From a virus (taxonomy: Duplodnaviria > Caudoviricetes), in IMG/VR virus record IMGVR_UViG_3300032092_000001: DNA of 64,000 bases. One strand, given 5' to 3'. Numbering within the stretch: the stretch's first letter is position 1; every line of letters starts with the position of its first letter. The translations under genes were made by a program, and so were the position numbers. Shown one piece after another: positions 11,664 to 58,080 of this stretch. The notes under the pieces are model-generated. The model saw only the letters and a program-made list of their open reading frames with translations. It was not told the origin of the DNA and ran no database searches.

Positions 11664-12458
11664 AAGGGGTAATTGTTAATAACTTTATTTGTTAAAAAAC
11701 TTGATTTTGTCAAAATGTCAGGGGAGCGTCAGATGGGGGATGGTCCCTTTCACCACTTTTAGACATATTAACTATAATAAATATCCCCCATATTGTCTAT
11801 AATATAGGTGTATTAAATTTACCACTTTTTCCCACTGACGTATATGTGAGAGGGGTTTTTGATTATATAAAAAGTGAAAAAAGTGGTCCTGTAGATAGCG
11901 TCAGAGGGGTTTTTTTTACTATATAGATATTCCAGATAAAAAAAGAGTATGTTAATAAATGAGCGTGGACAGACTTTAGTCGTTACAATCTTCAACGAAA
12001 AAAGGGATTTTATTGTGTCTTCAAGGGGGTTTTTCATATTACCCCTTTCAAATATAGACACATTATATGGACAATTATAGTGGTGGTAAAAAGTGGGACA
12101 TAATGAGTCATATAACGGATAAACCTGTAGGTTTATGTTCCCTATAAGTCACATTGTCCCTTACGTATTCCACCATTTATATATGGGGAATGAATAACAT
12201 CACCTATCATATACTCATTCATTTATACCTGTAGGTATAATACCTTTTAGTATATAGAATGATTATTCACATATGGAACTATAATGTCCCCTTATACTAT
12301 GTGTCTTTCATTAGGGGTTCTTATATATGGGGGAAATTAGGAAGTAAATAAACGAATGTACCCATTAGTGTAATGGACCGAAGGGGAATGGAACGACACG
12401 ATAGTGGAATGGGGGAGTGAGTTTATTTAGTTCGTAATTTCATTATATTTATTATCAT
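11664..12458. other. long non-coding region with paired 18-bp palindromes
   Basis: ATAAACCTGTAGGTTTAT at 12119-12136 and TTATACCTGTAGGTATAA at 12223-12240. Confidence 0.55.
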
Positions 12459-12737
12459 ATGAAATACATTATCACAGAATCACAGTTAGATACATTTTTA
12501 CTTAGGAGGTTTACAATGGATGAATTGGAATCACTTAGGGATGATTATAACTATATTATGGATGACGAAGATTTTGAAGACTCTGCCGATAGAGATGACT
12601 ACGCTTATGAACTACTTGAAAAGTTCATTGATAGACATAGAAGTGAGGAGTTTTTACAATATGATAATGACACTGAATTCTATGAAAACCGTGCCGATTA
12701 TATTAGGGCGTTACTTAAATTCTTACATTCTAATTAA
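12459..12737 (+). CDS. ITESQ-leader acidic protein
   Basis: MKYIITESQL; TATTTAT upstream. Confidence 0.7.
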   Translation: MKYIITESQLDTFLLRRFTMDELESLRDDYNYIMDDEDFEDSADRDDYAYELLEKFIDRHRSEEFLQYDNDTEFYENRADYIRALLKFLHSN

Positions 12738-12741
12738 TTAA

Positions 12742-12749
12742 TATTTATA
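12742..12749 (+). promoter_or_regulatory. phage TATTTATA promoter-like element (representative copy, probably late)
   Basis: Also at 13522, 16357, 16702 (+) and 5083, 7296, 9673, 19756, 50569, 51693, 59185, 61764 (-), 4-16 nt before ATG. Confidence 0.7.
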
Positions 12750-12753
12750 TATA

Positions 12754-13107
12754 ATGAAATACCTTATCACCGAATCACAAATTGATAGAGTAGTGTCCAT
12801 ATACTTGAATAATCAGGACTTTGTGATATATGACAACAAGAAGAAATTCAATAATTATATATATTTCTTAAACAGTGAGTCAGATAGGGAATCGCAGATT
12901 AGTGTTTATACTAACAACGCTTTTGGTGAAGTTAGGAATTGGGTGTTTGTAAATTCTGATTTGATTGAGGAATTATCTACCTTCTTCTCCATAGATAGAT
13001 TGGATTGTTTGAATATAATCAAAATGTGGGTTAATAATACTTTGGGTATTAGTGATAGTACGATTTGGGATGGTCCATATGATTACAGATTAATGGTTAA
13101 CGAATAA
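12754..13107 (+). CDS. ITESQ/DNQDF paralog family member
   Basis: MKYLITESQ..YLNNQDF...STFFS...WV. Confidence 0.8.
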   Translation: MKYLITESQIDRVVSIYLNNQDFVIYDNKKKFNNYIYFLNSESDRESQISVYTNNAFGEVRNWVFVNSDLIEELSTFFSIDRLDCLNIIKMWVNNTLGISDSTIWDGPYDYRLMVNE

Positions 13108-13517
13108 TGAAAGTAATAATCACTGAAAGTCAAGGTAAGAAAACTCTTAAACCATTATTGGCGAAATTTGGTATGCGTACTCTGTGTAAAATGACAGGTA
13201 AGTCAGTTAAAGATGTTATTAATGAAGCAGGTATTAAGGGAACTAAAGAAGATATTATCTTTCTAACAAAAACTATAATTGAGAATGACCTCTCATCCGT
13301 CTTAACATATTGTAATTATAATATCATACCCACTCAGTACTCTATGGATTTGGTTGTCTATATACCTAAGCCGGCTCCTGAAAATGTGGGAAGGTATATG
13401 TTTGACCAAGGTACAAGGAATGTGTATAGAGATGCTATCTCCGAGGCTTTATATAAATTAGGTGGCGGTTTAATTAAAGGTCATAATATTGAGGTTCATA
13501 ATACAGGTAACTGTTAA
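13107..13517 (+). CDS. ITESQ-leader protein
   Basis: MKVIITESQ; translationally coupled. Confidence 0.7.
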   Translation: MKVIITESQGKKTLKPLLAKFGMRTLCKMTGKSVKDVINEAGIKGTKEDIIFLTKTIIENDLSSVLTYCNYNIIPTQYSMDLVVYIPKPAPENVGRYMFDQGTRNVYRDAISEALYKLGGGLIKGHNIEVHNTGNC

Positions 13518-13533
13518 CTAATATTTATATATA

Positions 13534-13866
13534 GTGAAATATCTTATAACCGAATCACAGATAGACAAAGTAATCTTTAGGTACTTGGACAATCAGGACT
13601 TTATTCCAATAGAAAAGGGTGATAATATATACTTTGTAAATTCAGAAGGAGATGAATATGCTCAAATCAGATATGATAAAGATGATGGTTGGTGTTATAT
13701 ATCTTGGAAGTTAGTTAATGAAATTTATTCTTTCTTTTCTTTGGAAGAATATGATTCCGAACAAGTTATTGGTAGGTGGGTTGAGAATACCCTACAGATG
13801 AGGGTCACTGACACCGTGCCCATTTTTAATCCGGATAATCCTTCGTTGATAATACCCTCTAACTAA
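13534..13866 (+). CDS. ITESQ/DNQDF paralog family member
   Basis: GTG start; ends in a repeat-spacer-partial repeat unit. Confidence 0.8.
   Translation: MKYLITESQIDKVIFRYLDNQDFIPIEKGDNIYFVNSEGDEYAQIRYDKDDGWCYISWKLVNEIYSFFSLEEYDSEQVIGRWVENTLQMRVTDTVPIFNPDNPSLIIPSN
13780..13866 (+). repeat. CRISPR-geometry unit: 36-nt repeat, 29-nt spacer, partial repeat
   Basis: GTTGAGAATACCCTACAGATGAGGGTCACTGACACC at 13780-13815; GTTGATAATACCCTCTAACTAA from 13845. Confidence 0.7.
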
Positions 13867-14578
13867 TAGTAATAATCTTCCACTCCCCATTGTAATCTTC
13901 CACAAGACAAGTGGAGTTCTCACAAAAATCACCTGAATTCATATAGTCATTCTCTAACTTCGGATGATGAATATGTCCACACACCGCAACATCATATCCC
14001 TTCTGTTTCGTTAACCCTTTTGCGTTTTCCTCAAAATCAGATACAAAGTTAATTGCCCCTTTAACAGATTGCTTTATTGTGTTTGCCAGTGAATGATATG
14101 GTAAGTTAAACCACTTTCTTATTTTGTTGTATAGGGTATTAAACTTAATGACAATATCATATGACCATCCACCAATTACTGCTAACCATCTTGCTTCCAT
14201 TATAACGAAATCCAACACATCCCCGTGAAAACAAAAGTATGTTCTCCCATCTATTCCTTCGTGCACATATTTCCTCACAATCCTTATATTGTTTAACTTA
14301 AACGGAATGAAATCTTTTAGGAAGTCATCGTGGTTTCCCCTTATATAAATCACCTTTGTGTCCTTCTCTGACATCTTCATAAACTTCCTGAATATCTTGG
14401 TGCAATCCTTTGTCCATTTACCATTCCCCTTTAATGCCCAACCATCTATTATATCTCCGTTTAATATTAACTTATCCGCTTGGTTTTCCTCTATGAACTT
14501 TATTATCTTATCCGTTTGTGATTGTCTTGCACCCAAATGTAAATCACTCATTATGATTGTTCTGTATCTCATTTCCAA
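13859..14578 (-). CDS. UDP-2,3-diacylglucosamine hydrolase-like metallophosphoesterase
   Basis: SDLHLG, GDIID, RGNHD, FHGD, CGHIH motifs. Confidence 0.85.
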   Translation of the reverse strand: MEMRYRTIIMSDLHLGARQSQTDKIIKFIEENQADKLILNGDIIDGWALKGNGKWTKDCTKIFRKFMKMSEKDTKVIYIRGNHDDFLKDFIPFKLNNIRIVRKYVHEGIDGRTYFCFHGDVLDFVIMEARWLAVIGGWSYDIVIKFNTLYNKIRKWFNLPYHSLANTIKQSVKGAINFVSDFEENAKGLTKQKGYDVAVCGHIHHPKLENDYMNSGDFCENSTCLVEDYNGEWKIITIS

Positions 14579-15273
14579 TATGAATTATGGTTGGAAAAAT
14601 ATCCCTTGTTATTTCTGTTGAAGAATGACTGTATCATTAACTTTGTCATATACCATAATCCCTTATTCTCAAATCTTCTTGGTAATGTGAATATGGTTTT
14701 CCTATATACCTTGAACTTATTTGTCTTTATCTGCTTTGATAGTAAGTAATCCTCCGCAACCTTTGCTTCTTCATCAAATCCATTTAGTGAATTGAATGTA
14801 GATTTCCTTATTAACATAAATCCACCGAGACAGAATGGTGTAATATATCTTGTTATTCCCTGAATTAAATCAAATGTCCTAAATACATAATTGTATTTTC
14901 CATTTGTTGTTCTTACCTTTGTTGTCAGTAAATCCAACCTTTCTTTTGTCATCATATACATGCACTCTTGTAACAAGTTTGTGTCAAGTATCATCATGTC
15001 CGCATCCATAAACAATACAAACGGAGTTTCAGCTCGTTCTGCCCCGTTATTTCTTGCTTTGCTAGGTAATCCACCCTGAATGATGTCAAGATTGAAATAA
15101 TCCCTGTTTCTGTTCTCCAAATGGTATGTTGTTCCATCATCCGATGAGTCGGAAACAATAACCTTAACTCCGTCAATACCATTTTGGAAATTTAATAGTG
15201 TTATAGTTTGATTGATAGTTATCCCCTCGTTCTTACAAGGTATAACAATGGTTAATAACTTTGATAGTTCCAT
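14569..15273 (-). CDS. glycosyltransferase family 2
   Basis: IVIPCKNE, FMDAD, GGFMLIR..GFDE..AED motifs. Confidence 0.9.
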   Translation of the reverse strand: MELSKLLTIVIPCKNEGITINQTITLLNFQNGIDGVKVIVSDSSDDGTTYHLENRNRDYFNLDIIQGGLPSKARNNGAERAETPFVLFMDADMMILDTNLLQECMYMMTKERLDLLTTKVRTTNGKYNYVFRTFDLIQGITRYITPFCLGGFMLIRKSTFNSLNGFDEEAKVAEDYLLSKQIKTNKFKVYRKTIFTLPRRFENKGLWYMTKLMIQSFFNRNNKGYFSNHNSYWK

Positions 15274-15382
15274 TTATATAAGTATTGGAAGTAAAGACCA
15301 AACCATATTATCATATTCTTATGAAATTATTAACTCAATATGTATAGTTCAATTTTATACTTATCTTTGTATTTATTATCAT

Positions 15383-15700
15383 ATGAAGATTGAGAATAAA
15401 GTTAATGCAATTGTAAAACTAATTAATACATTATACTCACCTGACGAGATTAAAGTTAGAAAGAGTGAATATGATGATGAGATATTAATTGATGTTTACT
15501 TTTCTCATATTGATGATTCATATATAACCAACTCTGACTATTATGACCTTAAAAAATTAAAACAACAAAATTTTGAGGGTGAGATTAGAAGGACGATACA
15601 GGACTTCTTGAGTATTAAAACAAGCGGATTAAACCCACATACAGGTTTCTCCCCATACGAGGTTCACGGTATAACAATAGACGTAAGATTAACTAAATGA
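15383..15700 (+). CDS. hypothetical protein (start revised to MKIENKV)
   Basis: Tandem TATCTTTG (15362) and TATTTAT (15370) upstream. Confidence 0.65.
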   Translation: MKIENKVNAIVKLINTLYSPDEIKVRKSEYDDEILIDVYFSHIDDSYITNSDYYDLKKLKQQNFEGEIRRTIQDFLSIKTSGLNPHTGFSPYEVHGITIDVRLTK

Positions 15701-16026
15701 AATACCTTATAACAGAATCACAAATAGATAGAATAATCTTTAGGTATCTTGACAATCAGGACTTTATTCTTGTTGGTAATGGTCTCAGTTTATTTTTTAT
15801 TAATTCTGAGGGTGATGAATCAGCTCAAATTAGATATAATAAAGATGATGGTTGGTGTTATATAAACCACGATTTAATTAGGGAGATTACCTCCTTCTTT
15901 TCTATCAAATCATATGAAGCTGAAAAGATTATCAGTAAATGGGTTGAATATGTTTTGGAGATGGAAGTTACTAACATCGGTAAACCTGGATATGTGACCT
16001 CAAACACACTATACTATTCTATATGA
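15697..16026 (+). CDS. ITESQ/DNQDF paralog family member
   Basis: Aligns by eye with 13534..13866. Confidence 0.8.
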   Translation: MKYLITESQIDRIIFRYLDNQDFILVGNGLSLFFINSEGDESAQIRYNKDDGWCYINHDLIREITSFFSIKSYEAEKIISKWVEYVLEMEVTNIGKPGYVTSNTLYYSI

Positions 16027-16334
16027 AATACCTTATAACAGAATCACAATTTGACAAAGTAATATTTAGATACTTAGACAATCAAGATTTTATTCAGATA
16101 GAAAAAGGAAATAAAATATACTTTGTAAATTCAGAAGGGGATGAATATGCTCAAATCAGATATGATAAAGAATATGGTTGGTGTTATATACATTACAAGT
16201 TAGTTGATGAAATTTCTACCTTCTTTTCTTTGGTACGAGATGATTCTAAAGAAGTTATTGGTAGATGGGTTGAGAATACCATCCAGATGAGGGTCACTCA
16301 CACCATAATATGGGTATATATCCAGGTGGAATAG
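16023..16334 (+). CDS. ITESQ/DNQDF paralog family member
   Basis: Stop codon falls inside the spacer of the terminal unit. Confidence 0.8.
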   Translation: MKYLITESQFDKVIFRYLDNQDFIQIEKGNKIYFVNSEGDEYAQIRYDKEYGWCYIHYKLVDEISTFFSLVRDDSKEVIGRWVENTIQMRVTHTIIWVYIQVE

Positions 16335-16356
16335 GTTGAGAATACCCTCTAACTAA
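16269..16356 (+). repeat. CRISPR-geometry unit: 36-nt repeat, 30-nt spacer, partial repeat
   Basis: Repeat 16269-16304 is 33/36 identical to 13780-13815; GTTGAGAATACCCTCTAACTAA from 16335. Confidence 0.7.
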
Positions 16357-16368
16357 TATTTATATATA

Positions 16369-16701
16369 ATGAAATACCTTATAACAGAATCACAATTAGA
16401 TAAAGTAATCTTTAAATACTTAGATAATCAGGACTTCATTCAGATTGAGAAGGGTGATGGTGTATACTTTGTAAATTCAGAAGGTGATGAATATGCTCAG
16501 ATTAGATATTTTAAAAAGGATAACAAATGTGTCATATATACAGGATTAATTGATGAGGTATCTTCTTTCTTTTCTATGCAAGGTTATGATGCTAGAGAAA
16601 CTATAGGTAGATGGGTTGAGGAGACCTTAAAGGTAGATATTGATTATTGTTTGTGGGCATATAACATTAAATCTGAGTGGATGCAGATTCCGTCTAATTA
16701 A
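16369..16701 (+). CDS. ITESQ/DNQDF paralog family member
   Basis: Ends in IPSN like 13534..13866. Confidence 0.8.
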   Translation: MKYLITESQLDKVIFKYLDNQDFIQIEKGDGVYFVNSEGDEYAQIRYFKKDNKCVIYTGLIDEVSSFFSMQGYDARETIGRWVEETLKVDIDYCLWAYNIKSEWMQIPSN

Positions 16702-16714
16702 TATTTATAATAAC

Positions 16715-17071
16715 ATGAAAGTATTAGTCACCGAATCTAAATTAAAAACATTTATTAAGAACAAATTAAATATTGACTTCACAGGCCGTGTGGAGCTTGA
16801 CCCGAGCATATATAAAATACTGAATGATTTTGATTTCTATTTTACTTACGATGGTTTACGAAGAAGACAATTAGGTGATAACTATGGTCCGATGTATCTG
16901 ATAGAATTGGATGATAATCATAAGGTATTATATCAAATGAATTATAGTTCAAACCACCCATTGATTCTTGATAATAGAGGTGATGGATATGAAGAGTCCG
17001 ACTTTATGAATTTACTTGGTATCTCCGCTCTTGGGATAACATTAGAACAATTCCTTGACCTATACATATGA
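16715..17071 (+). CDS. leader protein (start revised to MKVLVTESKL)
   Basis: TATTTATA at 16702-16709. Confidence 0.7.
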   Translation: MKVLVTESKLKTFIKNKLNIDFTGRVELDPSIYKILNDFDFYFTYDGLRRRQLGDNYGPMYLIELDDNHKVLYQMNYSSNHPLILDNRGDGYEESDFMNLLGISALGITLEQFLDLYI

Positions 17072-17367
17072 AATACATTATAACAGAATCACGATTTGAT
17101 AAAGCAGTATTTAAGTATTTGGATAATCAGGACTTTATTAAGGTTAACAAAAAAGAAAACATATTCTTTCTTAATTCTTCAGATGATAAATTATCGGATG
17201 CTCAAATCGCATATGTTAAAACTGATGGTGAGTGTTACATAAAATATGAATTAATGGTAGAGATTTCTGATTTTTTTTCTATTGATGTATATGAGGTCAA
17301 TAAAATCATTGGTAGATGGTTTGAAGATACTCAACAAAGAAGAGTATCATCAATCCATTGGGTGTAA
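17068..17367 (+). CDS. ITESR/DNQDF paralog family member
   Basis: YLDNQDF...IGRWFEDT. Confidence 0.8.
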   Translation: MKYIITESRFDKAVFKYLDNQDFIKVNKKENIFFLNSSDDKLSDAQIAYVKTDGECYIKYELMVEISDFFSIDVYEVNKIIGRWFEDTQQRRVSSIHWV

Positions 17368-17379
17368 TATTTATTCTAT

Positions 17380-17751
17380 ATGAAATATATTATCACAGAA
17401 TCACAACATAAGTTAATCACCGAGCTTGAAAGAACTTGGAGAAATGTTGAGTATACTGAACAATATGAGAAACTTAAACATAAACTTGTTCCTTATTTTG
17501 AGAAGTTGGTTGACTCATATGATGAAAGTGAATTTAGAATTGGTTTATTTGATTCTGAAGGAAAACTAATGATGTTGTATATAAAACAAAGTGGTGAATT
17601 ATATTATAGTAGACACCTTGATAATATGTATGGTGACGCTTTTCCTCATCCCATTTGGCAAGTCCACGGCGATTTCATTCTATCAGATGTATTTAACATA
17701 TACTTCCCCGACTATGAAGTTAAATCAGTTAAAAGTGTAACATTCTCATGA
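17380..17751 (+). CDS. ITESQ-leader protein
   Basis: MKYIITESQH. Confidence 0.7.
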   Translation: MKYIITESQHKLITELERTWRNVEYTEQYEKLKHKLVPYFEKLVDSYDESEFRIGLFDSEGKLMMLYIKQSGELYYSRHLDNMYGDAFPHPIWQVHGDFILSDVFNIYFPDYEVKSVKSVTFS

Positions 17752-18089
17752 AATACCTAATCACCGAATCACAACGAGATAAAGCCGTATTCAAATACTT
17801 GGATAATCAAGATTTTGAAATATCTAAAATTGGTGCCAGTACATACTTTAAACACCCTGATGATGACGGGTTTGCTCAAATTAAATATGGTGGTAATCAC
17901 GCTAATAATGAATTGTGTTTTATCTATATAGATTTAATTAAAGAAATTTCTTCCTTCTTTTCTCTTAACGATTATCAATCTACCAGAGCTGTTGGACAAT
18001 GGGTTAAGAAAACCCTGAACTTGGAGGGTCAAATGTCCAACAAGATAATGCAACTCAAATCGTCATTAAAAATACCAACTGAATATTAA
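17748..18089 (+). CDS. ITESQ/DNQDF paralog family member
   Basis: YLDNQDF...VGQWVKKTL. Confidence 0.8.
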   Translation: MKYLITESQRDKAVFKYLDNQDFEISKIGASTYFKHPDDDGFAQIKYGGNHANNELCFIYIDLIKEISSFFSLNDYQSTRAVGQWVKKTLNLEGQMSNKIMQLKSSLKIPTEY

Positions 18090-18125
18090 TTTGTAGTTCC
18101 ACAATTTTTGTCGTATCTTTGGCTT

Positions 18126-18725
18126 ATGGTAACAGATAAGATAAAACAATACATATTCAAACGTCTATACAAAGAGTTAGGTAATGCGGAAATAATTCCA
18201 TACAATAATTCCATATGGTTTATTGATAGAAATGAAAGGTATTGGTATTTTGAACTTGAAAATAACGGAAATCTTTATTGGAGATATAATTATTTTACAA
18301 ATTTTTTCTCTTGGTTCTCTTTGGAACCTAATCAGTTTGAACCAATTATATCTGAATGGGTGGAAGAGGTATTAAATCATAAGGTATCCACAACAGGAAA
18401 CCAAGGCCATGATAGCGGATTCTGGGTGGAAGATGTATTAAATCATAAGGTATCTACAACCGTCCCCTACTTGACCATTGACAATGTCCAGGTGGAAAAG
18501 GTATTAAATCATAAGGTATCTACAACATGGTCAGGTCACTCAACCCAACCAAATATGGTGGAACAGGTCTTAAATCATAAGGTATCAACAACTATTCCTG
18601 TGAATTTGGGAATGGGTCAGCGGGTGAAATATGTCTTAAATCGTAAGGTAGAAACAACAAAAAGCTTTGGAGCTCCCAAGCACTTTCAGGTGGATAAGGT
18701 ATTAAATGAAAACCCCACTGAGTAG
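18126..18725 (+). CDS. protein with C-terminal 22-aa repeats (12 constant + 10 unique residues)
   Basis: Start revised: TATCTTTG at 18114-18121, ATG 4 nt later; VExVLNHKVSTT units. Confidence 0.75.
   Translation: MVTDKIKQYIFKRLYKELGNAEIIPYNNSIWFIDRNERYWYFELENNGNLYWRYNYFTNFFSWFSLEPNQFEPIISEWVEEVLNHKVSTTGNQGHDSGFWVEDVLNHKVSTTVPYLTIDNVQVEKVLNHKVSTTWSGHSTQPNMVEQVLNHKVSTTIPVNLGMGQRVKYVLNRKVETTKSFGAPKHFQVDKVLNENPTE
18359..18707 (+). repeat. in-frame CRISPR-like array: 36-nt repeat, five 30-nt unique spacers
   Basis: Repeats start at 18359, 18425, 18491, 18557, 18623, 18689 (exact 66-nt period); consensus GGTGGAAnAnGTATTAAATCATAAGGTATCnACAAC; no cas genes in the window, so not typed as CRISPR. Confidence 0.85.
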
Positions 18726-18742
18726 CGAATTCAATGGGGTTA
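18711..18742 (+). terminator. hairpin terminator
   Basis: AACCCCA...TGGGGTT at the end of the repeat gene. Confidence 0.55.
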
Positions 18743-18801
18743 ATGTAGCCTAAACTACAGCGGTCCTAAGCCCGTTTCTTTAATGTTTTTATAGGTCCAT
18801 A

Positions 18802-23275: not shown

Positions 23276-23642
23276 ATTTAAAGTAATAATTAAATATCTT
23301 ACAATCGGGACTTAAATTCATTAAGTCAGGAAACATAATATCCCCGATATCATTATTATCAATATGTGAGATATGTAATTCAGTGAAGTATTTCGCATAC
23401 TTCTCATATGTTTTCTTACCTCCAATACACCAATCCACATCTGTAATCTCTTTGTCTCTCTCATCAACAATTACCTCTCTATTATTTAGTTTTGGTAGGT
23501 TTGTTGACGTATTATAACCAACAAGTAATCTTTGGTTTAGTGTTTGTTTCACAAAATGTGACATATCTTGTTGGGATTTCCATAACAACTCATTGTTCAC
23601 TCCGATGTATCCCAAATTATTAACCGCAATAATTGATTTCAT
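23274..23642 (-). CDS. folA: dihydrofolate reductase (compact)
   Basis: IIAVN..GYIG..NELLW...D..HF, VG..T, IGG...Y motifs. Confidence 0.85.
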   Translation of the reverse strand: MKSIIAVNNLGYIGVNNELLWKSQQDMSHFVKQTLNQRLLVGYNTSTNLPKLNNREVIVDERDKEITDVDWCIGGKKTYEKYAKYFTELHISHIDNNDIGDIMFPDLMNLSPDCKIFNYYFK

Positions 23643-24664
23643 TATATTGTCTCCGCACTTTCTGAAAAGATTATTTCCCTAACCAAAGGACAATTCTGTT
23701 TAATATTGTTTTCAAAGAATATCTTGAAGAACTCTTTATCCACAAAACTTATCATCTGTTTTTTATACTGTAACTTAAAGTCTCCAACTTTTTCAAGAAC
23801 ATCAACTTTATTTACAACCAAATGAGTCACTCCATTAATGTTTGCAGCTTTAATTAAATCATCCAGGTTAGTCCAACCAATCTGTCTTGGTCTTCCTGTG
23901 GTTGACCCATATTCATTACCAACTTCTCTAATCATCTCAAATGTTCTACTTGGTTCCTCAAATTGCTTGGCTCCAACATACGTGTTATATGCTTTACATA
24001 CACCATAAACCTTTCTAATCTTTTGAGGTGGAACTCCATTAAGAACAGCACTTCCAATCGTACAATGTGATGATGTAACATATGGGTAATCCCCCCAATC
24101 AATATCAAGTTCAAACCCTTGAGCACCTTCAAACAAAATCTTTACATCATTTTTACCATGGAATTCCTCATAGATATCACAGACATATTGCTCAAGTAAT
24201 TCGGCGTTCTCAACTCTCACACCTTTACGATAATACTTATCACGATAAGCCGGTCCATTACCTGTTTTAGTCGTTCCAATCTCTTGGTCTTTGGAGTCCT
24301 CGGTTGTGTGTTCAGGTCGGATAATGTGAGCTCGTTTATCAATAAACAAATTACCCATAACTTCAATTCCATTTGCCTCAAGTTGTTGTATTTCATGGAA
24401 TAAACTAATCGGATTAACCACACAACCTGGTCCAATAATTGACTTAACACCGTTTACAATTCCCGATGGAATAAAATGTGTCACCATCTTTTTACCTTTC
24501 TTGTATATGGTGTGACCAGCATTACCACCACCATTATATCTCACAACATGTGTGTATTCATTTGGGATTTGACTTAAAGTATTACATACCTTACCTTTCC
24601 CTGTGTCCCCCGCTTGGAGGTCCACAATTACATCCGCATAATTAATCATACCCAATATTAACAA
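23642..24664 (-). CDS. purA: adenylosuccinate synthetase (short form)
   Basis: GDTGKGK, GGGNAGHT, EGAQG..LD, EYGSTTGRPR, NKVDVL. Confidence 0.95.
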   Translation of the reverse strand: MLILGMINYADVIVDLQAGDTGKGKVCNTLSQIPNEYTHVVRYNGGGNAGHTIYKKGKKMVTHFIPSGIVNGVKSIIGPGCVVNPISLFHEIQQLEANGIEVMGNLFIDKRAHIIRPEHTTEDSKDQEIGTTKTGNGPAYRDKYYRKGVRVENAELLEQYVCDIYEEFHGKNDVKILFEGAQGFELDIDWGDYPYVTSSHCTIGSAVLNGVPPQKIRKVYGVCKAYNTYVGAKQFEEPSRTFEMIREVGNEYGSTTGRPRQIGWTNLDDLIKAANINGVTHLVVNKVDVLEKVGDFKLQYKKQMISFVDKEFFKIFFENNIKQNCPLVREIIFSESAETI

Positions 24665-25682: not shown

Positions 25683-26114
25683 TTATTTTTCTTCCAACGA
25701 AAGAAGTCCTTTACCAAATTTATTTAGTCTATCATAATATCTTTCTTTAACATGTTGGTGAATTGGTATCGCCTTACCATCCCCGTCTATTCTAACAAAT
25801 GTTATAAATGTTTGTGTTACCGCATCTTGTTTACCAGTGTGGACGTTGTGTTTACGAACTTCAATATATAATTTAATTGACGTTGTTCCGAACTTCTCAA
25901 CTCTACCGTAGATTTTAAGTAAACTTCCAACTTTAACAGGACTCTTAAATAACAACTCGTCAATCTTGATTGTAACCATTCTTGGAGTGTCACATATCTG
26001 AGCGGCATATGAAGCAGCTGAATCATCAATCAATGACATTAAAGTCCCTCCAAAGATGTTTCCATGAACACCCTCGTCAGATTTTTTCATGATTGTTGTT
26101 GTTATAAGTTCCAT
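25683..26114 (-). CDS. acyl-CoA thioesterase (HotDog fold)
   Basis: HGNIFGGTLMSLIDDSAA, VEKFGTTS. Confidence 0.85.
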   Translation of the reverse strand: MELITTTIMKKSDEGVHGNIFGGTLMSLIDDSAASYAAQICDTPRMVTIKIDELLFKSPVKVGSLLKIYGRVEKFGTTSIKLYIEVRKHNVHTGKQDAVTQTFITFVRIDGDGKAIPIHQHVKERYYDRLNKFGKGLLSLEEK

Positions 26115-27133
26115 TACACCGTAGTCATTTTAAAATTAGTTTCCACCATGTTTACAGTACTAGATATTACTGACATGATTAAGTATGGATTACCATTTGA
26201 TGCTGGTCTTCTATCTTCAATATAACCTTTCCACCCTGAGTTAGCCGTAGTTTGTGGGACTCTGATTGATGCCCCTCTATCTGACACACCAAAACTAAAC
26301 TTATCAATTGATTGTGTCTCGTGTTGACCTGTTAATCTCATTTTATTGTCAGAACCATAGTTCTCAATATGTTTTGAATGGTTTTGCTCCATAGCAAAGA
26401 ACAACATATCAAAGTATGGTTTTCCTCCAACCTCTCTCATATATTTTGTTGAGAAATTTGTGTGTAACCCTGAACCGTTCCAATCACCTTGAAGCGGTTT
26501 TGGATGGTATTCAATTCTAACCTCATATGTCTCAGCAATTCTTTCTAAAAGATATCTACATAAAATCAATTGGTCGCAAGCATCCAATGTTCCTTTACCC
26601 ATTACTTGGAACTCCCATTGCCCAAGAGCAACTTCAGCATTAATACCAGTAACATTAAGTCCCGCAGCCAAACAAACATCCAAATGGTGTTCAACGATGT
26701 TACGACCTGAAACATTCTCAAATCCAATTCCACAATAATACTCACCTTGTCCCTTCATCAAACCTTTTTTATGTCCGAGAGGTAATTCACCATTGTAAAT
26801 AAAATACTCTTGCTCAAATCCAACCCACATATCTGAATCATCTTTAATCAATGAACGATGGTTTGTTGGGTGAGGTGTTGAATCGGGATTTAGAACTTCA
26901 CATAGGACCAAATAACCATTCTTCCTTTGTGGGTCTTTAATCATCTTAACAGGTTTCAAAAGACAATCAGAAAACTTCCCTTCAGCTTGCTTTGTTGATG
27001 ACCCATCAAAATTCCAAATTGGTAATGAATCAATTGTTAGTTCAGTTTCCGTGTTTAATACTTTGGTCTTACTTCGTAAATTCGGCTCGCTACCATATCC
27101 GTCAAGCCAAATGTATTCTAATTTGTGTATCAT
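26114..27133 (-). CDS. glnII: glutamine synthetase type II
   Basis: EYIWLDG, WNFDGSST, GFEQEY, NAEV..GQWEF, WNGSGLH, RLTG.HET, YIEDRRPASN. Confidence 0.95.
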   Translation of the reverse strand: MIHKLEYIWLDGYGSEPNLRSKTKVLNTETELTIDSLPIWNFDGSSTKQAEGKFSDCLLKPVKMIKDPQRKNGYLVLCEVLNPDSTPHPTNHRSLIKDDSDMWVGFEQEYFIYNGELPLGHKKGLMKGQGEYYCGIGFENVSGRNIVEHHLDVCLAAGLNVTGINAEVALGQWEFQVMGKGTLDACDQLILCRYLLERIAETYEVRIEYHPKPLQGDWNGSGLHTNFSTKYMREVGGKPYFDMLFFAMEQNHSKHIENYGSDNKMRLTGQHETQSIDKFSFGVSDRGASIRVPQTTANSGWKGYIEDRRPASNGNPYLIMSVISSTVNMVETNFKMTTV

Positions 27134-30702: not shown

Positions 30703-31770
30703 TTAATTACTTAATGGTGCTTTAATTGATGGGTGTGATTGGTAGTTCTCCAAAATAACATCATTAATAGATGAACAATGGATACCACCTCTAACACTAA
30801 CCTTTGGTAAGTCGTATGGTTCTCTACCAATCTGTTCTTTTGCTTGTTCAATATGATTTAGGTAAATGTGAGTATCACCCAAGTTACCAATCAACTCATC
30901 AGGAACCATATTTACTTCATCAGCAATCATAGTCAATAACAATCCATAACTTGCAATGTTGAATGGTAAACCTAAGAATGTATCTACTGAACGTTGATTC
31001 CACATTAAAGAGATTGCTCTGGTTGGAATATTTTTATCATCTAAATAATCTAGTGTGTTAATCATTCCAAGTCCATTACCATCGTATGGTTTATCTGAAT
31101 AAAGAGCCCATCTTTCGTCAAAACTTAAAACTCTCGTATACATTTGAAATCCATAGTGACAAGGTGGAAGTACCATTTGGTCTAATTCACCTGGATTCCA
31201 AGCATTAACCATCATTCGTCTTGAGTCTGGATTTGTTTTAAGGTCACGGATTAGGTTTGCAATTTGGTCTATACCGTTCCAACTTGTCTTTGCACCTACT
31301 ATGTCTCCTTTACCGTTATCTACATACTTAAATACGTTCTTATACGAACCCCAACCCCTCCATTGCTTACCATAAATCGGACCTAATTCGCCCCACTTAT
31401 AAGCAAACTCATCATCTGTTTTGATTTTGTTTATGAATTCTTCTTGTGTTAATGTCTCAACTTGGGTTGATACTCCAGCAATAACCGAATACCTCTTATA
31501 AGCATCACCATCCCAAATATGACAATTGTTATCAACAAGGTATTTGATATTGGTATCACCTTTTAAAAACCATAGTAATTCAGTTACCATAGTTTTCCAA
31601 GCCATCTTCTTGGTTGTAAGAAGTGGAAAACCATCTTTCATATTATGACGAATGGCATAACCAAAAATTGATTTGGTTCCTGTACCAGTTCGGTCTTTCT
31701 TCTCCACCCCAAAATCTAAAATGGTTTGGAGTAATGTTTGATATTGTTTATCTAACTTATTCATTTTCAT
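30703..31770 (-). CDS. thyA: thymidylate synthase
   Basis: DRTGTGT, ELLWFLKG, LGPIYGKQWR, LPPCH, QRSVDTFLGLPFN, HIYLNH. Confidence 0.97.
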   Translation of the reverse strand: MKMNKLDKQYQTLLQTILDFGVEKKDRTGTGTKSIFGYAIRHNMKDGFPLLTTKKMAWKTMVTELLWFLKGDTNIKYLVDNNCHIWDGDAYKRYSVIAGVSTQVETLTQEEFINKIKTDDEFAYKWGELGPIYGKQWRGWGSYKNVFKYVDNGKGDIVGAKTSWNGIDQIANLIRDLKTNPDSRRMMVNAWNPGELDQMVLPPCHYGFQMYTRVLSFDERWALYSDKPYDGNGLGMINTLDYLDDKNIPTRAISLMWNQRSVDTFLGLPFNIASYGLLLTMIADEVNMVPDELIGNLGDTHIYLNHIEQAKEQIGREPYDLPKVSVRGGIHCSSINDVILENYQSHPSIKAPLSN

Positions 31771-37132: not shown

Positions 37133-38722
37133 TTATTTTATTTTTATTTTCATTTTAGTACCAATCTCATTTTTCTCACAAGTAATTTGAAACCCGTGTT
37201 CTTCCAAAATTGCAACACAAATATTTAACCCTAACCCTGTACCAGATTCTTTCTGACCTTCCTTTCTTGTATAAGGTTTACATAGGTGATTAAAATCTTC
37301 TTGAGTAATACCTCTACCATTATCTTGTACGATAATTGAATTATCTTCAGAATATATTTTAACAAACTTTGTTTCAGAGTCGTTATACTTTAAACCATTT
37401 CTAATTAAGTTATCTACCGCAGTACAGAACAATGCCTCGTTAACTTCAATCGTCGGTAGGTTATCATCTAACATTACTTGACTGATATAAGCAGTAGCGG
37501 ACAAATAGTCCTTGAGTATGTCCTTGATGTTACATTCAGCTTTATTCAATACAACATCTTTCTTAACAAGATTGGTGAACTCATAAACACCTTTATAAAC
37601 TTTTTGTGAATGTTTAAGTCCCTCCTTAATCATTTTAAGTGGACCTTCAATTTTAAGATTTGTAATGTCTTCACTTGTTATTCTTCGTTCTAAAGAACTT
37701 AACCCTCTTGGTATATATGTGTTAATACCAGAGTGCATGTCGTGTCTTAATATTTTAGCAGCATGTTCTAAATATGTATTTTTCTTCTCAATCTCTTTCT
37801 TTTGTTCGTAAGATTGAGTGATGTCTGTCGCAATTTTCATAATACGATAAATCTTATCGTCAGTACCAATAATAGGATTGTAAGTTGCTTGTAAATAAAC
37901 TAAAGAACCATCTTTTTTAACTCTAGTGATTTCACCTGTAAATAATATACCTTCTCTTAATTTTTCCCAAAAAAGAATATACTCATCACTTTTTGAATGT
38001 TTTTCATCTATAAAAATTCTATGGTGTTTTCCGGCAAGTTCATCCTGTTCAGAATATCCCATAGTTTCTAAAAATAAATTATTAGCGAAAATGATGTTAC
38101 CATCTAAATCAAACTCAATAACTGCATTAGATTTGTTTATAGCGTTCATTCTGTTACGAATTTCAACTTCCTTTTTCTTAAGCTCAGTAATGTCTTGTCT
38201 GATAGACGAGAAACCATCTAATTTCCCATCAGTACCGAATCTTGCCCTGATGTATGTGTCAACATAATATAAACTACCGTCTTTAGCTTTATTAGTCACA
38301 ACATCATTCCATATCTCACCCTTCATAACCGTTTCATACATCTTCCCCCAATACCCATCAGGTTGTGTCCCCGAATTAACTATTGAGTGGTCTTTACCAA
38401 TTACTTCTTCAAGTTTCCACCCTGACACTTTTTCAAACTTATCATTAACATAAGTTATTTTACCTTTTCTATCAGTAACCGATATAATTGCCGCCCTATC
38501 AATGAACTTATCCGTATCATTAAGTTTTTTACTTTGAACATTATTAATTTCACGAACTATTAAAATAAAAAGTGGTATGAATAATATAAAACAAGCATAC
38601 TCAACACCTCTTGTAAATCTTGTCGACTCCTGTATCTCTAATAAAACTGATGTTTTAATGAAAAAGAAAACAGACATTATTATGATTGATAGAAGTAAAT
38701 AGATTTTTGTACTTTTTGTCAT
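37133..38722 (-). CDS. membrane PAS-PAS sensor histidine kinase
   Basis: Two N-terminal TMs; two PAS/PAC domains; H-box ILRHDMHS; N-box NLIRNGLKYN; DNGRGI; GTGLGL. Confidence 0.92.
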   Translation of the reverse strand: MTKSTKIYLLLSIIIMSVFFFIKTSVLLEIQESTRFTRGVEYACFILFIPLFILIVREINNVQSKKLNDTDKFIDRAAIISVTDRKGKITYVNDKFEKVSGWKLEEVIGKDHSIVNSGTQPDGYWGKMYETVMKGEIWNDVVTNKAKDGSLYYVDTYIRARFGTDGKLDGFSSIRQDITELKKKEVEIRNRMNAINKSNAVIEFDLDGNIIFANNLFLETMGYSEQDELAGKHHRIFIDEKHSKSDEYILFWEKLREGILFTGEITRVKKDGSLVYLQATYNPIIGTDDKIYRIMKIATDITQSYEQKKEIEKKNTYLEHAAKILRHDMHSGINTYIPRGLSSLERRITSEDITNLKIEGPLKMIKEGLKHSQKVYKGVYEFTNLVKKDVVLNKAECNIKDILKDYLSATAYISQVMLDDNLPTIEVNEALFCTAVDNLIRNGLKYNDSETKFVKIYSEDNSIIVQDNGRGITQEDFNHLCKPYTRKEGQKESGTGLGLNICVAILEEHGFQITCEKNEIGTKMKIKIK

Positions 38723-44177: not shown

Positions 44178-44857
44178 AGGTTTAAGAAATGTTTTAATTT
44201 ATTAATATTCATAGTCACATTTTTTGGAACATGTATTGGTGAATTAATAGGGTTAACTTCTTTTGTCTTCATCGCCAACTCATAAATTGTTTTAATTTCA
44301 GTTCCAACATTATAAATTCCCACCCCATTACCTTCAATTAGTCTAACAACCAAATCAGATATTACCGAAGTATAATCAGCATTTGTCAATACATCAACCC
44401 AAGCATCATCATATGGAAATGGATATGGTTTATGAGATAAACGACAGATAAGATAATTTTTACCAAATAAAACTATATGTTCGTCTGCAAATAGTTTTGA
44501 TAAACTATACCAGTTTCTATCAGGAACTGTAATACTATCTTCCGAAGCGTTTTCATATGAACCAGCGTATACATAATCAGTTGATATGTGGACTAACTTC
44601 TTACCCATCTCATTACAAAAATTGACAAGATGTGTTACAAACTTATAATTGTCCCTCATCATCACCTCTTTGTCATTTGAATAGGTATTGGTATTTGCAA
44701 TACAATTTACAATAACATCATAAGGGTGTAACATCCACATCCACTCATCAAAATTATCAGTAGTAATTCCGTCCTTTTTCCTTGATATGAAATCCCAACC
44801 TGTTTGGTTAATAATTTCCTTACCTAAACTACCATCACCAATTACTAAAACACTCAT
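44174..44857 (-). CDS. RmlD-like NAD(P)-dependent sugar reductase/epimerase
   Basis: VIGDGSLG, HISTDYVY, WYSLSK. Confidence 0.8.
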   Translation of the reverse strand: MSVLVIGDGSLGKEIINQTGWDFISRKKDGITTDNFDEWMWMLHPYDVIVNCIANTNTYSNDKEVMMRDNYKFVTHLVNFCNEMGKKLVHISTDYVYAGSYENASEDSITVPDRNWYSLSKLFADEHIVLFGKNYLICRLSHKPYPFPYDDAWVDVLTNADYTSVISDLVVRLIEGNGVGIYNVGTEIKTIYELAMKTKEVNPINSPIHVPKNVTMNINKLKHFLNL

Positions 44858-45915
44858 AACTTTTTATATTCGGGTTTTAAATAATTCCATATTACTTTAT
44901 CAGTGTTCTTTCCATCCCACATCAAAAAACATAATGCCTTTATCTTTGGGTGGGTCTTACATTCTTCCAAATGTAATGCAAACTCCTTCTTTGATGGTTC
45001 AGGGTTTCTATCCCCATACTTACCATAACGGAAGTATGAATATATCTTGTAAGCATAATCCCCATAACGATAGTGATTATATCTTAAATCGGCAACGTAC
45101 ATCTTTATCTTTTTGTAGAACTCGTCAGGAACATCTTTCAATAATTCCAATACATCTTTACCTTCACTCAACATTTCCCACACCGCAGTGGTAGATACAT
45201 TGGTCATTATCTTATGTAGACGAAGATACTCCTCACCCTTAACTTTCATTCTATCCCCATTAGAGAAACGAACAACAAAACCTTCTTCATCGTGATTTAT
45301 CATCCCCTTCAATTCGGAATAATCCCGAATTCCATCGTATTTTTTGACAACTTTGAACCCAAGATTATTGATTAAGTTCTTCAATCTAACATCGTTACCC
45401 TCACCATACAAATCAACCTCATATCCAGTTTCAGTATTTATCATTCCGAGTAATACCAAATCTTCGTATGGATATTTCACAACGATACGGTTATCGTCAT
45501 ATATTATTTCAAATAGGTAAGTGTAGCCCTTATGTAGTTTTTGATAGTCATACTTCTGTAACATCTCAAATCCTTTAACCGCTTGGTCAGAAGTGAAAGA
45601 ACCACGAGTCGCCATTACCCACTCACCTTCATAGTTGAATAGTATTCCCAAAGAACCATCCATCTTATCGTAAACGTCAAAGTCAGGAGTTGCGGTGTGT
45701 TTTTTCTCAGATTCGTTAAAAAATTTACGAAATGGTCTAGCGACAACTGACCCATTTACATCAGTAACTAATCCACGAGTTTGTAGGGTAACATCATCCC
45801 ACTTACCTTCGTATTGAACGGTTTCGGTATAGTTCCACATAGTCAAAGGAAGAGTTGGGTGTACTTGTTTGTACACCAACCCTTTCTCAAAATATCTATT
45901 TAGAACTTCATTCAT
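44854..45915 (-). CDS. T4 Rnl1-like RNA ligase
   Basis: RGLV...RPFRKFFN, KMDGSLG, TYLFEII, EGFVV, RMKVK; TATCTTTG at 45920-45927. Confidence 0.88.
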   Translation of the reverse strand: MNEVLNRYFEKGLVYKQVHPTLPLTMWNYTETVQYEGKWDDVTLQTRGLVTDVNGSVVARPFRKFFNESEKKHTATPDFDVYDKMDGSLGILFNYEGEWVMATRGSFTSDQAVKGFEMLQKYDYQKLHKGYTYLFEIIYDDNRIVVKYPYEDLVLLGMINTETGYEVDLYGEGNDVRLKNLINNLGFKVVKKYDGIRDYSELKGMINHDEEGFVVRFSNGDRMKVKGEEYLRLHKIMTNVSTTAVWEMLSEGKDVLELLKDVPDEFYKKIKMYVADLRYNHYRYGDYAYKIYSYFRYGKYGDRNPEPSKKEFALHLEECKTHPKIKALCFLMWDGKNTDKVIWNYLKPEYKKL

Positions 45916-45933
45916 TTGACAAAGATACAAAAA

Positions 45934-53293: not shown

Positions 53294-55156
53294 TTATCCT
53301 TTTACTTCTTCAAAATCAACATCAGACACATTTACTTCTTCAGTTTGATTTTCAGGAGATTGTTGTGAATATAATTTTTCAGATATCTTTTGAAACACAA
53401 CATTAACGTTATCCATCTTGGTTTTAATGTCATCCACATTTTTTGTAGAATGGGCCGACTTTAATTCGTCAATTGCAGTGGTAACTTCAGTTTTTTCTTC
53501 CTCAGACAATTTATCTTCCATATCTTTCACTGTCTTTTCAACTTGGAAGATTAGACCGTCCGCCTGATTGATAACCTCAGCATCTTCTTTCGCCTTCTTA
53601 TCAACATCAGCATTTGCTTCAGCTTCTTGTTTCATTCTTTCAATTTCTTCTTTTGAAAGTCCTGATGATGCCTCAATACGAATGTTCTGTTGTTTGTTGG
53701 TCCCTTTGTCCAATGCTGATACATTAATAATACCATTGGCATCAATATCAAATGTCACCTCAACTTGTGGAACACCTCTCATCGCCGGTGGAATACCATC
53801 CAAGTGGAAACGACCAATTGTTCTATTGTCTTTTGACATTGCTCTTTCACCTTGTAATACGTGGATTTCAACTGATGGTTGGTTATCAACTGCGGTTGAG
53901 AATACCTGTGACTTCTTGGTTGGAATTGTTGTGTTAGCTTCAATCAACTTTGTGAACACACCACCCATTGTTTCAATACCAAGTGATAGTGGAGTAACAT
54001 CCAACAACAATACATCTTTCACATCACCTGCTAATACTCCCGCTTGGATTGCCGCGCCTAATGCAACTACCTCATCAGGGTTAACACCTTTTGATGGGTC
54101 CTTACCGAAGAACTTCTTAACCGCTTCCTGAATTGCAGGAATACGTGTTGTACCTCCAACCAAGATTATTTCATCAATGTCAGATGTTTTAAGTCCCGCA
54201 CTTTTAAGAGCCGACTCACAAGGTTTAATAGTTCTTTGAACCAAACTATCAACAAGTTGTTCAAACTTCGCCTTAGTCAAATTACGAACCAAGTGTTTTG
54301 GGACACCATCAACTGGCATAATGTATGGAAGGTTAATCTCTGTTGAAGGTGAAGATGATAATTCAATCTTCGCTTTCTCAGCCCCTTCACGTAGACGTTG
54401 TAATGCCATTGGGTCTTTGGTCAAGTCCAATCCATTCTCGTCCTTAAATTCTTTAACCAACCAATCAACGATAACATTGTCAAAGTCATCACCTCCAAGG
54501 TGTGTGTCACCATCAGTAGATAATACTTCAAATACACCATCACCCAATTCCAAAATAGATACGTCGTGAGTTCCACCACCACAGTCAAACACAACAATCT
54601 TCATATCTTTAGATTGTTTATCCAAACCATATGCAAGAGCTGCCGCAGTTGGTTCATTAACAATTCTCATTACCTTCAATCCCGCAATCTCACCGGCCTC
54701 TTTTGTTGCCTGACGTTGAGCGTCGTTGAAGTATGCCGGTACCGTAATAACTGCTTCGGTAACTTCAGAACCCAGATAGTCTTCAGCAGTTTGTTTCATC
54801 TTTTGTAAAACCATTGCCGAAACTTCTTGTGGAGAATACTCCTTACCGTCAATCTCAACACGTGGAGTTCCTTTACTATTTACCACTTTGTAGGGAACTC
54901 TATTTACTTCACTTTTACTTTCATCAAATCCAGTTCCCATAAAACGTTTAATAGATGAAATTGTTTTTTCAGGGTTGGTCACCGCCTGACGTTTTGCCGG
55001 GTCACCAATCTTTCTCTCACCACCATTGATAAATGCAACAATTGAAGGGGTGGTTCTCTTTCCTTCACTGTTTGTAATCACAACTGGTTCGTTACCTTCC
55101 ATTACGGCAACACACGAATTAGTTGTTCCAAGGTCAATTCCTATAATTTTTCCCAT
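53294..55156 (-). CDS. dnaK: Hsp70 chaperone DnaK
   Basis: [50 protein letters not shown]. Confidence 0.98.
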
Positions 55157-56945: not shown

Positions 56946-56950
56946 TGTTG

Positions 56951-57034
56951 TAGTCGGAGCGGGAATCGAACCCGCACGGACGTTAGTCCACAGCATTTTA
57001 AGTGCTGCGTGTCTACCTATTCCACCATCCAACC
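56951..57034 (-). tRNA. tRNA-Leu(TAA)
   Basis: Cloverleaf; anticodon stem CAGCA/TGCTG with loop CT-TAA-AA; long variable arm; GGTTCGATTCC. Confidence 0.92.
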
Positions 57035-57040
57035 ATTCTG

Positions 57041-57114
57041 TGCGCCCTACAGGAATCGAACCTGTCACCCACTGATTATGAGTCAGTTGCTCTAACCGAA
57101 TGAGCTAAGGGCGC
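57041..57114 (-). tRNA. tRNA with CAT anticodon (Ile2-like or elongator Met)
   Basis: GCGCCCT/AGGGCGC acceptor; ACTGA-CTCATAA-TCAGT. Confidence 0.9.
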
Positions 57115-57168
57115 TCATCTCAAATCCTTTACAAATATACAATGGTTTTTTTAGATAATCAAGCTTTA

Positions 57169-57729: not shown

Positions 57730-57731
57730 TA

Positions 57732-58058
57732 TTAACCGTATATAGTTTCATCATCTTTATTTATAACTTTTATAAAAACTTGTTGGATGGTCGCAGTATC
57801 CCTATTGATATTCAAAAATTTAAGTAGATAATTTAAATGAACATCGTATAAATAATGTGGGTCAAATCCCTTGTCATACATGTTATTACTAGTTATTGTT
57901 GGGTCATTTAACTTAACAGTTATAAAAAATTGGTAGAAAGGAAATTCCTCATCTCCATCCCATCTAACATCAGCATCAATATTGTCAATCATCGGATATA
58001 TGTTTTTAATATAATCCGAGTTAAATAACTTGTTTGCGAGTTTTGATGTTAATATCAT
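57732..58058 (-). CDS. hypothetical protein (start revised to MILTSKL)
   Basis: Promoter elements at 58063-58077. Confidence 0.65.
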   Translation of the reverse strand: MILTSKLANKLFNSDYIKNIYPMIDNIDADVRWDGDEEFPFYQFFITVKLNDPTITSNNMYDKGFDPHYLYDVHLNYLLKFLNINRDTATIQQVFIKVINKDDETIYG

Positions 58059-58080
58059 AATAATAAATACAAAGATAAAT

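Follow-up and report, generated by a model that had tools for sequence, protein, structure and literature searches.

CRISPR arrays can be filled by the machinery of another locus. In Flavobacterium columnare the Cas1/2 proteins of the type II-C locus fill the type VI-B array in trans, leaders and repeats of the two loci differing, and about half of the new VI-B spacers are host-genomic, with the protospacer adjacent motif (PAM) end of the spacers facing the leader (PMC8092290). The VI-B repeat of this species is 36 nt long and is combined with 30-nt spacers (PMC5395568). II-C and VI-B repeats have a leader-distal motif in common, and in other species the II-C repeats are ∼11 bp longer than the VI-B repeats (PMC8092290). 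Viruses carry related elements: phage mini-arrays are non-coding and have 1–2 spacers against related viruses and repeats identical to those of the host (PMC11656645), and RNA anti-CRISPRs (Racrs) are solitary intergenic small RNAs, of which a survey that masked open reading frames (ORFs) had none for type VI (PMC10651486). Here we describe an array of 36-nt repeats and 30-nt spacers that lies in frame inside gene P0001 of a virus (Duplodnaviria; Caudoviricetes; IMG/VR record IMGVR_UViG_3300032092_000001). The whole stretch analysed, 64,000 nt of one strand, is referred to as the window.

We read the locus, with a probability of about 0.75, as a phage-borne orphan CRISPR-type array that sits in frame in the 3′ part of its gene and is extended by an integrase sampling host DNA. 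The array has a regular anatomy, a polarised and fast turnover, a repeat constrained at the DNA level and an open frame, and its spacers are pieces captured from the bacterial host chromosome with exact edges. This host origin is a new result of the present analysis, and there is good support for the view that the array was formed by an integrase of CRISPR type sampling the host's DNA. The hosts are named here genus A, one Bacteroidota genus with genomes of 1.5–2.8 Mb, and genus B, its sister genus in the same family. The search set for this host family comprised 236 genomes and that for Flavobacteriaceae 401 genomes.

Array anatomy and reading frame

The array spans positions 18359–18708, entirely inside the ORF 18126–18725, and consists of five full repeats of 36 nt, half a repeat at the end and five spacers of 30 nt. 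The repeats start at 18359, 18425, 18491, 18557 and 18623 and the half repeat at 18689, a period of exactly 66 nt; the expected number of occurrences of this pattern in shuffled sequence is 0.00. The spacers have no mutual relatedness and contain 13–15 G+C per 30 nt (hand count) compared with ∼32% G+C for the window. Repeats 1–5 agree with the consensus at 35, 35, 35, 33 and 28 of 36 positions, the degenerate repeats being the distal ones (5 and 6), and the variation among repeats is partly synonymous (TCC/TCT/TCA, GTA/GTC). This is in accordance with a sequence-only reading of the window, which had described six repeats at a 66-nt period, unrelated 30-nt spacers richer in G+C than the background, distal decay and partly synonymous repeat variation. 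Its division of the unit into 36 + 30 nt agrees with the edges of the repeat given below, and a division into 12 + 10 codons does not. The features of the gene are as follows.

18126–18725, plus strand: array-bearing gene P0001, 199 aa, with a predicted folded N-terminal domain (N-domain) and an array-encoded tail; stop codon TAG at 18723–18725
18126–18358, plus strand: coding region of the N-domain, in the position of a CRISPR leader; homologous to the tandem paralogue family (alignment A1)
18359–18394, plus strand: repeat 1, 36 nt, 35/36 to consensus
18395–18424, plus strand: spacer 1, peptide GNQGHDSGFW; originates in an EnvC-like M23-peptidase gene of the host, with which it shares the sense but not the frame
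18425–18460, plus strand: repeat 2, 35/36 to consensus
18461–18490, plus strand: spacer 2, peptide VPYLTIDNVQ; from a host SprB-repeat adhesin gene, antisense; the window copy has one point change
18491–18526, plus strand: repeat 3, 35/36 to consensus
18527–18556, plus strand: spacer 3, peptide WSGHSTQPNM; no source match in related phage DNA, GenBank phages, IMG/VR or genus A
18557–18592, plus strand: repeat 4, 33/36 to consensus
18593–18622, plus strand: spacer 4, peptide IPVNLGMGQR; an old unit common to many relatives; no source match in genus A genomes
18623–18658, plus strand: repeat 5, degenerate, 28/36 to consensus
18659–18688, plus strand: spacer 5, peptide KSFGAPKHFQ; trailer-end unit common to many relatives; no source match in genus A genomes
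18689–18708, plus strand: terminal half repeat, of which just the 5′ part is present; the conserved end ...NENPTE and the stop codon come next

The conserved block is exactly 36 nt long, has sharp edges and is not aligned with the codons. Its first base, G in 98%, is the third position of the codon that closes the spacer, and its final base is the second position of a Thr codon whose third position is free. In a comparison of 13 lineages that diverge by as much as 25% in N-domain DNA, synonymous sites were fixed solely within the repeat: in repeat 1 the codons GTG, GAA, GAG and AAT were fixed in 13/13 lineages and CAT, AAG, GTA and ACA in nearly all, and conserved residues of the N-domain used their synonymous codons freely. 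All 36 repeat positions were kept across the diverged lineages. The spacers are 30 nt long in nearly all units, and other multiples of three would hold the frame too. Two variants of the unit were seen among relatives. In two relatives of the window's gene (L045, L046) the repeat after the spacer encoding ECGGFTHGTN begins with T in place of the near-invariant G, and other relatives have one repeat with 6 nt inserted in frame (138-nt spacing), both flanking spacers still being 30 nt.

A protein search of lake metagenomes yielded 714 homologues, in which an N-domain of 77–80 aa is followed by 3–9 units, each a constant 12-mer (VEEVLNHKVSTT) and a 10-mer that varies between units. A scan for the array pattern in DNA, which is independent of gene calling, found 37 further arrays in 18 viral contigs, with 1–4 array genes per genome. 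Constant repeats and unique spacers of constant length (36 + 30 nt) are thus seen in the window and in 37 related arrays, and all 38 lie wholly within ORFs. No in-frame stop was found in the 890 codons of 89 distinct spacers, which extends the earlier observation that the window spacers are stop-free. The other two forward frames have 29 and 73 stops in 801 codons and the reverse frames 28–38. Under the same reading rule just 65% of random host 30-mers are free of stops, and by our own arithmetic the chance that all 74 independent spacer families are open is p ∼ 1e-14. The composition of the spacer peptides is near that of stop-free host DNA, with a mild shift towards D, Y, G, H, N and E and away from C, L, W and I. 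Since 36 + 30 = 66 nt, each insertion adds 22 codons.

P0001 has no Pfam, PHROG or NCBIfam family. AlphaFold (AF2) predicts a confident alpha/beta fold for residues 1–85, with a predicted local distance difference test score (pLDDT) of 72–87, and the last helix of the N-domain is predicted to be extended by the first repeat-encoded 12-mer. A search with the N-domain fold found no relative in the PDB, only uncharacterised phage homologues.

Origin and turnover of the spacers

The first clue to the source of the spacers was a lake-metagenome contig in which spacer 1 was flanked by non-repeat DNA. Scanning metagenomes with the core of this spacer then brought up three phage arrays and also two contigs (L042, L044; 42% G+C), in which exactly the 30 bases of spacer 1 match and nothing beyond them. 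There, the sequence lies within the gene of a 441-aa M23 peptidase. The neighbouring genes encode a tetratricopeptide repeat (TPR) protein, a lipoprotein and a pyridoxal phosphate (PLP) enzyme, a setting of bacterial chromosome. In a sample of Bacteroidota genomes the best match to the peptidase had 49% identity; within the family of that genome, matches of 99, 98, 95, 94, 93 and 90% were all found in one genus, genus A.

Spacer 1 of the window matches genus A at 28/30 positions (G838, G839), in addition to 30/30 in the two metagenome contigs, and spacer 2 matches at 29/30 (G838, G844), the version in relatives at 30/30. A distal spacer of close relatives, HLSLHNLHDL, matches genus A at 27/30. 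In a related contig with two arrays (L010), 7 of 16 spacers match genus A, with 30/30 and 29/29 among them. A phage of the type of the 240-kb relative G001 (L012) had no spacer match in genus A or in the 401 Flavobacteriaceae genomes; in the host family, 7 of its ∼16 spacers match genus B, one of them at 30/30. No match in genus A was found for the spacers of a contig with three arrays (L009), nor for the 5.7 kb of phage DNA adjoining the window's array. These array-specific genus matches, together with the silent adjacent phage DNA, serve as a cross-specificity control for capture.

In total, 14 distinct protospacers were found in host chromosomes at 26–30 of 30 positions, and the ends of the matches are the ends of the spacers at the repeat edges. 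The sequence-only reading had suspected that the spacers were foreign, and these matches bear it out. The protospacer genes include those for an M23 peptidase, an SprB adhesin, SecA, AroA, a MiaB-like protein, RadC, an ABC ATPase and a transporter; eight protospacers are antisense to the host gene and six are sense. The mean G+C content of the spacers is 42.2%, compared with 42.8% expected for stop-free host 30-mers and 32% for the phage. On the flank that faces the leader, pyrimidines are found at −3 and at −2 in 12 of the 14 protospacers each, a weak bias.

Sources outside the host genera were not found. No source was present in 233 kb of related phage loci and the window or in G001, GenBank phages gave only noise (E ≥ 0.4), and three of the window spacers had no source in IMG/VR. 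The 401 Flavobacteriaceae genomes matched only low-complexity or N-domain parts. G001 contains a long internally repetitive region at ∼169000–182000 (L027–L028), with a 13-nt word occurring dozens of times, which formed background in the spacer search.

Pairs of spacers fall into two classes, sharing either 24–29 of 30 bases or a random-like 0–18, and no intermediates were seen. Genes with identical N-domains may yet have as few as 3 of 8 units in common, and public metagenome contigs covering the array show many alternative units. To count the position of unshared units we used 346 gene pairs with N-domains at least 90% identical. Units not shared were proximal to the N-domain in 1394 cases, distal in 552 and internal in 161; proximal exceeded distal in 260 pairs, with the opposite in 49, and unit order was retained in 94% of shared pairs. 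No gradient in G+C content along the arrays, as a sign of ageing, was seen. Gain is thus polarised towards the 5′ end, as had been proposed from the sequence, and the far end is degenerate.

These data bear directly on the simplest alternative, an ordinary protein tandem repeat, built by duplication of a 22-residue unit whose 10-residue linkers then drifted apart by point mutation, with cassettes shuffled by recombination and nothing captured from outside. The peptide motif is indeed the last helix of a real protein family, and cassettes are clearly lost and exchanged among arrays. Such a history would not yield 14 spacers that match host genes with exact edges, a bimodal spacer similarity, a spacer G+C content equal to that of the host and not of the phage, repeat edges off the codon boundaries with fixed synonymous sites, or a near-constant spacer length of 30 nt where other multiples of three would do. 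The sequence-only reading had named what would speak for it, namely spacers that drift by point mutation, no polarity of gain and no external matches; the ordinary protein repeat fails this test, and we consider it very improbable. Gradual divergence of duplicated linkers was dropped as a candidate because of the bimodal similarity.

Repeat class, integration machinery and possible role

The last 12 nt of the phage repeat are identical to those of the F. columnare type VI-B repeat (compared with PMC5395568), and its last 14 nt to those of the repeat of Flavobacterium sp. J27, whose array adjoins Cas13b. From this likeness, we read the phage repeat as belonging to the Bacteroidota II-C/VI-B repeat class. 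The ends are conserved. The phage repeat lacks the VI-B inner hairpin (−3 to −5 vs. −10 to −11 kcal/mol), and its fold is not better than that of shuffles. In 95% of repeats Ser is encoded by TCC or TCT, which retains a G–Y pair in a 5-bp outer stem. No anti-repeat of a trans-activating CRISPR RNA (tracrRNA) was found in the window or in G001.

The same likeness could mean that the array provides guides or decoys for a host Cas13b (VI-B), its CRISPR RNA (crRNA)-like pieces silencing host transcripts or diluting host guides and the ORF serving to prevent termination. The 36/30 geometry, the 12–14 identical nucleotides in transcribed orientation and the retained outer stem with its TCY codon fit this idea, and Racrs are known repeat mimics, with none of type VI in a survey that masked ORFs (PMC10651486). 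No Cas13b was found, however, in 14 genomes of the host genus, in the 236 host-family genomes or in five related phage contigs, the search being effective on a positive control in Flavobacterium; the inner hairpin is absent, the fold equals that of shuffles, and the protospacers show no strand bias. We regard this role as improbable, and the dual mRNA/guide array suggested by the sequence-only reading is weakened with it. In one Flavobacterium covae genome (G007, ∼3184982–3188564), the Cas13b beside a VI-B array matches the model piecewise with many internal stops and looks decayed.

In five related phage contigs (133–241 kb) we found no Cas1, Cas2, Cas13b or reverse transcriptase. No cas or reverse transcriptase gene was seen in the window either, as had been noted from the sequence; it contains no ORF above 620 aa, and Pfam scans gave none. 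Among the hosts, cas1 was found in 2 of the 14 genomes of genus A and in 1 of the 27 of genus B, and the genus B genome with cas1 is the one that holds the 30/30 protospacer. The host loci encode Cas9, Cas1 and Cas2 (type II-C) and have 47-nt repeats ending in CACAAC and 30-nt spacers; the phage repeat is thus not the host II-C repeat. In the genus, such loci (L066/L093 of G840, L091 of G814) hold at least 43 spacers of 29–30 nt with 39% G+C. The 43 host II-C spacers had no match in the phage DNA analysed.

The capture reading can be put as a sequence of steps. New units would enter beside the N-domain coding region, in the place of a leader. Each event would duplicate the 36-nt repeat and insert a 30-nt piece of the host chromosome, from either strand and from ordinary genes. 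The enzyme would be a Cas1–Cas2-type integrase, most probably the one encoded by the type II-C locus that some host strains carry, acting in trans during infection. Only stop-free insertions would persist, and units would later be lost or exchanged through recombination between repeats. The product would be a folded 85-aa domain with a variable, probably disordered tail, in which constant 12-aa segments alternate with 10-aa peptides that represent out-of-frame or antisense readings of host DNA.

Several points weigh against this scheme. Just 3 of the 41 host-genus genomes have cas1, and no integrase is tied to the process; the related phage contigs are 45–82% complete. The host II-C repeat is 47 nt and not 36 nt long and is similar to the phage repeat at the ends only. 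Comparison of the lineages revealed no conserved DNA upstream of repeat 1 that could anchor a leader. The flank motif is weak and comes from 14 sites, and for three of the five window spacers no source was found. Translation of the array gene is something we infer from stop avoidance and the mild amino-acid filter. In shared spacers, codon positions 1–2 vary about as much as position 3, unlike in the N-domain, and the array-encoded tail beyond the first 12-mer is predicted to be disordered (pLDDT ∼30). As the tail has no predicted structure and shared spacers are near-neutral, a function at the protein level is not evident. The sequence-only reading had proposed a protein-diversifying system, and of this the addition of a 22-residue module with each capture stands, while the selection of the peptides was not borne out.

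The scarcity of cas1 alongside a fast turnover, the 47-nt host repeat, the many phage ORFs that have no known family and the incomplete contigs would also suit an integrase of an unrecognised family encoded by the phage itself, with a likeness to host CRISPR that is convergent or ancestral. The five contigs show no Cas1, Cas2 or reverse transcriptase, however, the spacers have the 30-nt length of host II-C arrays, and action of II-C Cas1/2 in trans on 36-nt repeats has experimental precedent (PMC8092290). We consider a phage enzyme distinctly unlikely.

Capture by a host integrase could also be a by-product that serves nothing: a good target is hit repeatedly, and each hit makes a new target. 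Near-neutral shared spacers, the predicted disorder of the tail and the indiscriminate sampling of host genes on both strands are as such a process would have it. Paralogues with a single decayed unit look like extinct arrays, and duplication of a competent first repeat could alone maintain the consensus. On the other hand, the arrays are widespread, homologues numbering 714 and a genome carrying as many as four array genes, and all 36 repeat positions are conserved although the N-domain DNA differs by up to 25%. If the N-domain alone mattered, in-frame stops in the array should be tolerated, and none was seen; the amino-acid composition is mildly filtered towards polar residues. A functionless by-product thus appears unlikely.

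Our leading guess is that the phage retains a target site for host spacer integration, either as a sink or as a generator of variable tails. Stated in full, lake jumbo phages would deliberately keep an integration site in their own genes so that host Cas1–Cas2 writes host DNA into the phage, a proposal we make tentatively and at less than even odds. In one version the site is possibly a diversification engine, each capture supplying a random 10-residue cassette to a phage protein that may travel in the capsid and be injected. The second version is a possible sink that would draw spacer acquisition off the host array and so block immunisation. If true, a kept site would be a new viral use of CRISPR adaptation and the first CRISPR array with translated spacers; in the literature searched, neither an array kept in frame within a gene nor a phage array of such host-chromosome spacers was described.

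Whatever its use, CRISPR-type capture appears to be active in nature on a phage coding gene, its products being retained as coding sequence across hundreds of variants. For lake jumbo phages that are uncultured, the spacers offer a sequence-based link to the host, since they name its genus. Such arrays would be missed by surveys in which ORFs are masked ahead of repeat detection. The locus raises the questions of whether Bacteroidota II-C Cas1–Cas2 can integrate at non-cognate 36-nt repeats, whether phages exploit or divert adaptation, and whether the phage uses random peptides made from host DNA.

Phage context and comparison with known systems

The window is part of a large AT-rich virus (32% G+C) with many small ORFs, and its DNA is also found in metagenomes of lake water and fresh water, all of the listed records being DNA runs; among related contigs in IMG/VR, lengths go up to 241 kb, with an estimated completeness of 82%. 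Upstream of P0001 lie seven or more tandem paralogues of 99–117 aa, and the N-domain aligns with seven of them. The motif WVEEVLNHKVSTT of the array gene aligns with WVENTLQMRVTDT of the paralogues (alignment A1), which upholds the match to solitary units pointed out in the sequence-only reading. Features around the gene are listed here.

12754–18089, plus strand: tandem N-domain paralogues (MKYLITESQ...WVExxL..V.T and a variable tail), each with one repeat-like unit
18711–18741, plus strand: hairpin spanning the stop codon of P0001, stable (z −2.8)
18759–18786, plus strand: weak terminator-like site downstream of the stop-codon hairpin

At 13780–13866 and 16269–16356 in the paralogue region, a 36-nt repeat-like block is followed by 29–30 nt and then by a partial second copy, and the block at 13780 retains an ACCCT/AGGGT inner hairpin resembling that of VI-B repeats. 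A host-genome search over 12400–18130, which covers the paralogue region with its variable tails, gave no matches. No Rfam family, the twister ribozyme included, was found near the array. Elsewhere, the window carries cell-like genes for HSP70/DnaK, a PAS histidine kinase, thymidylate synthase, a glutamine-synthetase-like protein, adenylosuccinate synthetase and a T4-type RNA ligase, which sit among positions 53294–55156, 37133–38722, 30703–31770, 26114–27133, 23642–24664 and 44854–45930, and six tRNAs lie at 56950–63884.

The array gene resembles the precursors of multi-core ribosomally synthesised and post-translationally modified peptides (RiPPs) and the variable proteins of diversity-generating retroelements (DGRs) in having constant DNA flanks around hypervariable peptide cassettes in one ORF. 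Unlike in these, the variable parts are literal 30-nt copies of host DNA, and no template repeat, reverse transcriptase or nearby maturation enzyme was found. Both were dropped as candidates, the RiPP precursor because the maturation enzymes are missing and the cores would be host DNA, and the retroelement because reverse transcriptase and template repeat are missing and the spacers are mutually unrelated.

Nivala et al. (2018) reportedly obtained off-target (“neo-CRISPR”) integration by Cas1–Cas2 at repeat-like sites of the E. coli chromosome in the laboratory. The phage locus would be similar in that a non-canonical site is used, the target is duplicated and an array is seeded. Unlike those events, it is a conserved and widespread feature of a phage lineage and is presumably translated.

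Like Racrs (PMC10651486), the phage sequences are copies of a repeat class used in the host phylum, and the neighbouring paralogues have single units. The array itself differs from a single intergenic small RNA in being full, growing and multi-unit and in lying inside an ORF, and the host is not known to have an effector that matches it. With phage orphan arrays and mini-arrays (PMC11656645) it shares being carried by a virus, having no cas genes and a presumed dependence on host Cas proteins. It is unlike them in having 3–9 spacers, a repeat that differs from the host II-C repeat, spacers from the host chromosome and an in-frame position that is probably translated.

The Flavobacterium type VI-B arrays filled by II-C Cas1–Cas2 (Hoikkala et al. 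2021, PMC8092290) differ from the phage array in several respects. The latter lies in a protein-coding gene with one frame kept open, the place of its “leader” is taken by coding DNA that lacks a conserved motif, its repeat has no inner hairpin, and Cas13b was not found in the phage contigs or the 236 host-family genomes. In common, the two have the 36-nt repeat and 30-nt spacers, the last 12–14 nt of the repeat being identical and the 5′ end similar. Neither has adjacent cas1/cas2, and both take many spacers from the chromosome of their own host, with no choice of strand at acquisition and with a motif on the leader-facing flank, weak in the phage. Both grow at the leader end and have degenerate repeats at the distal end.

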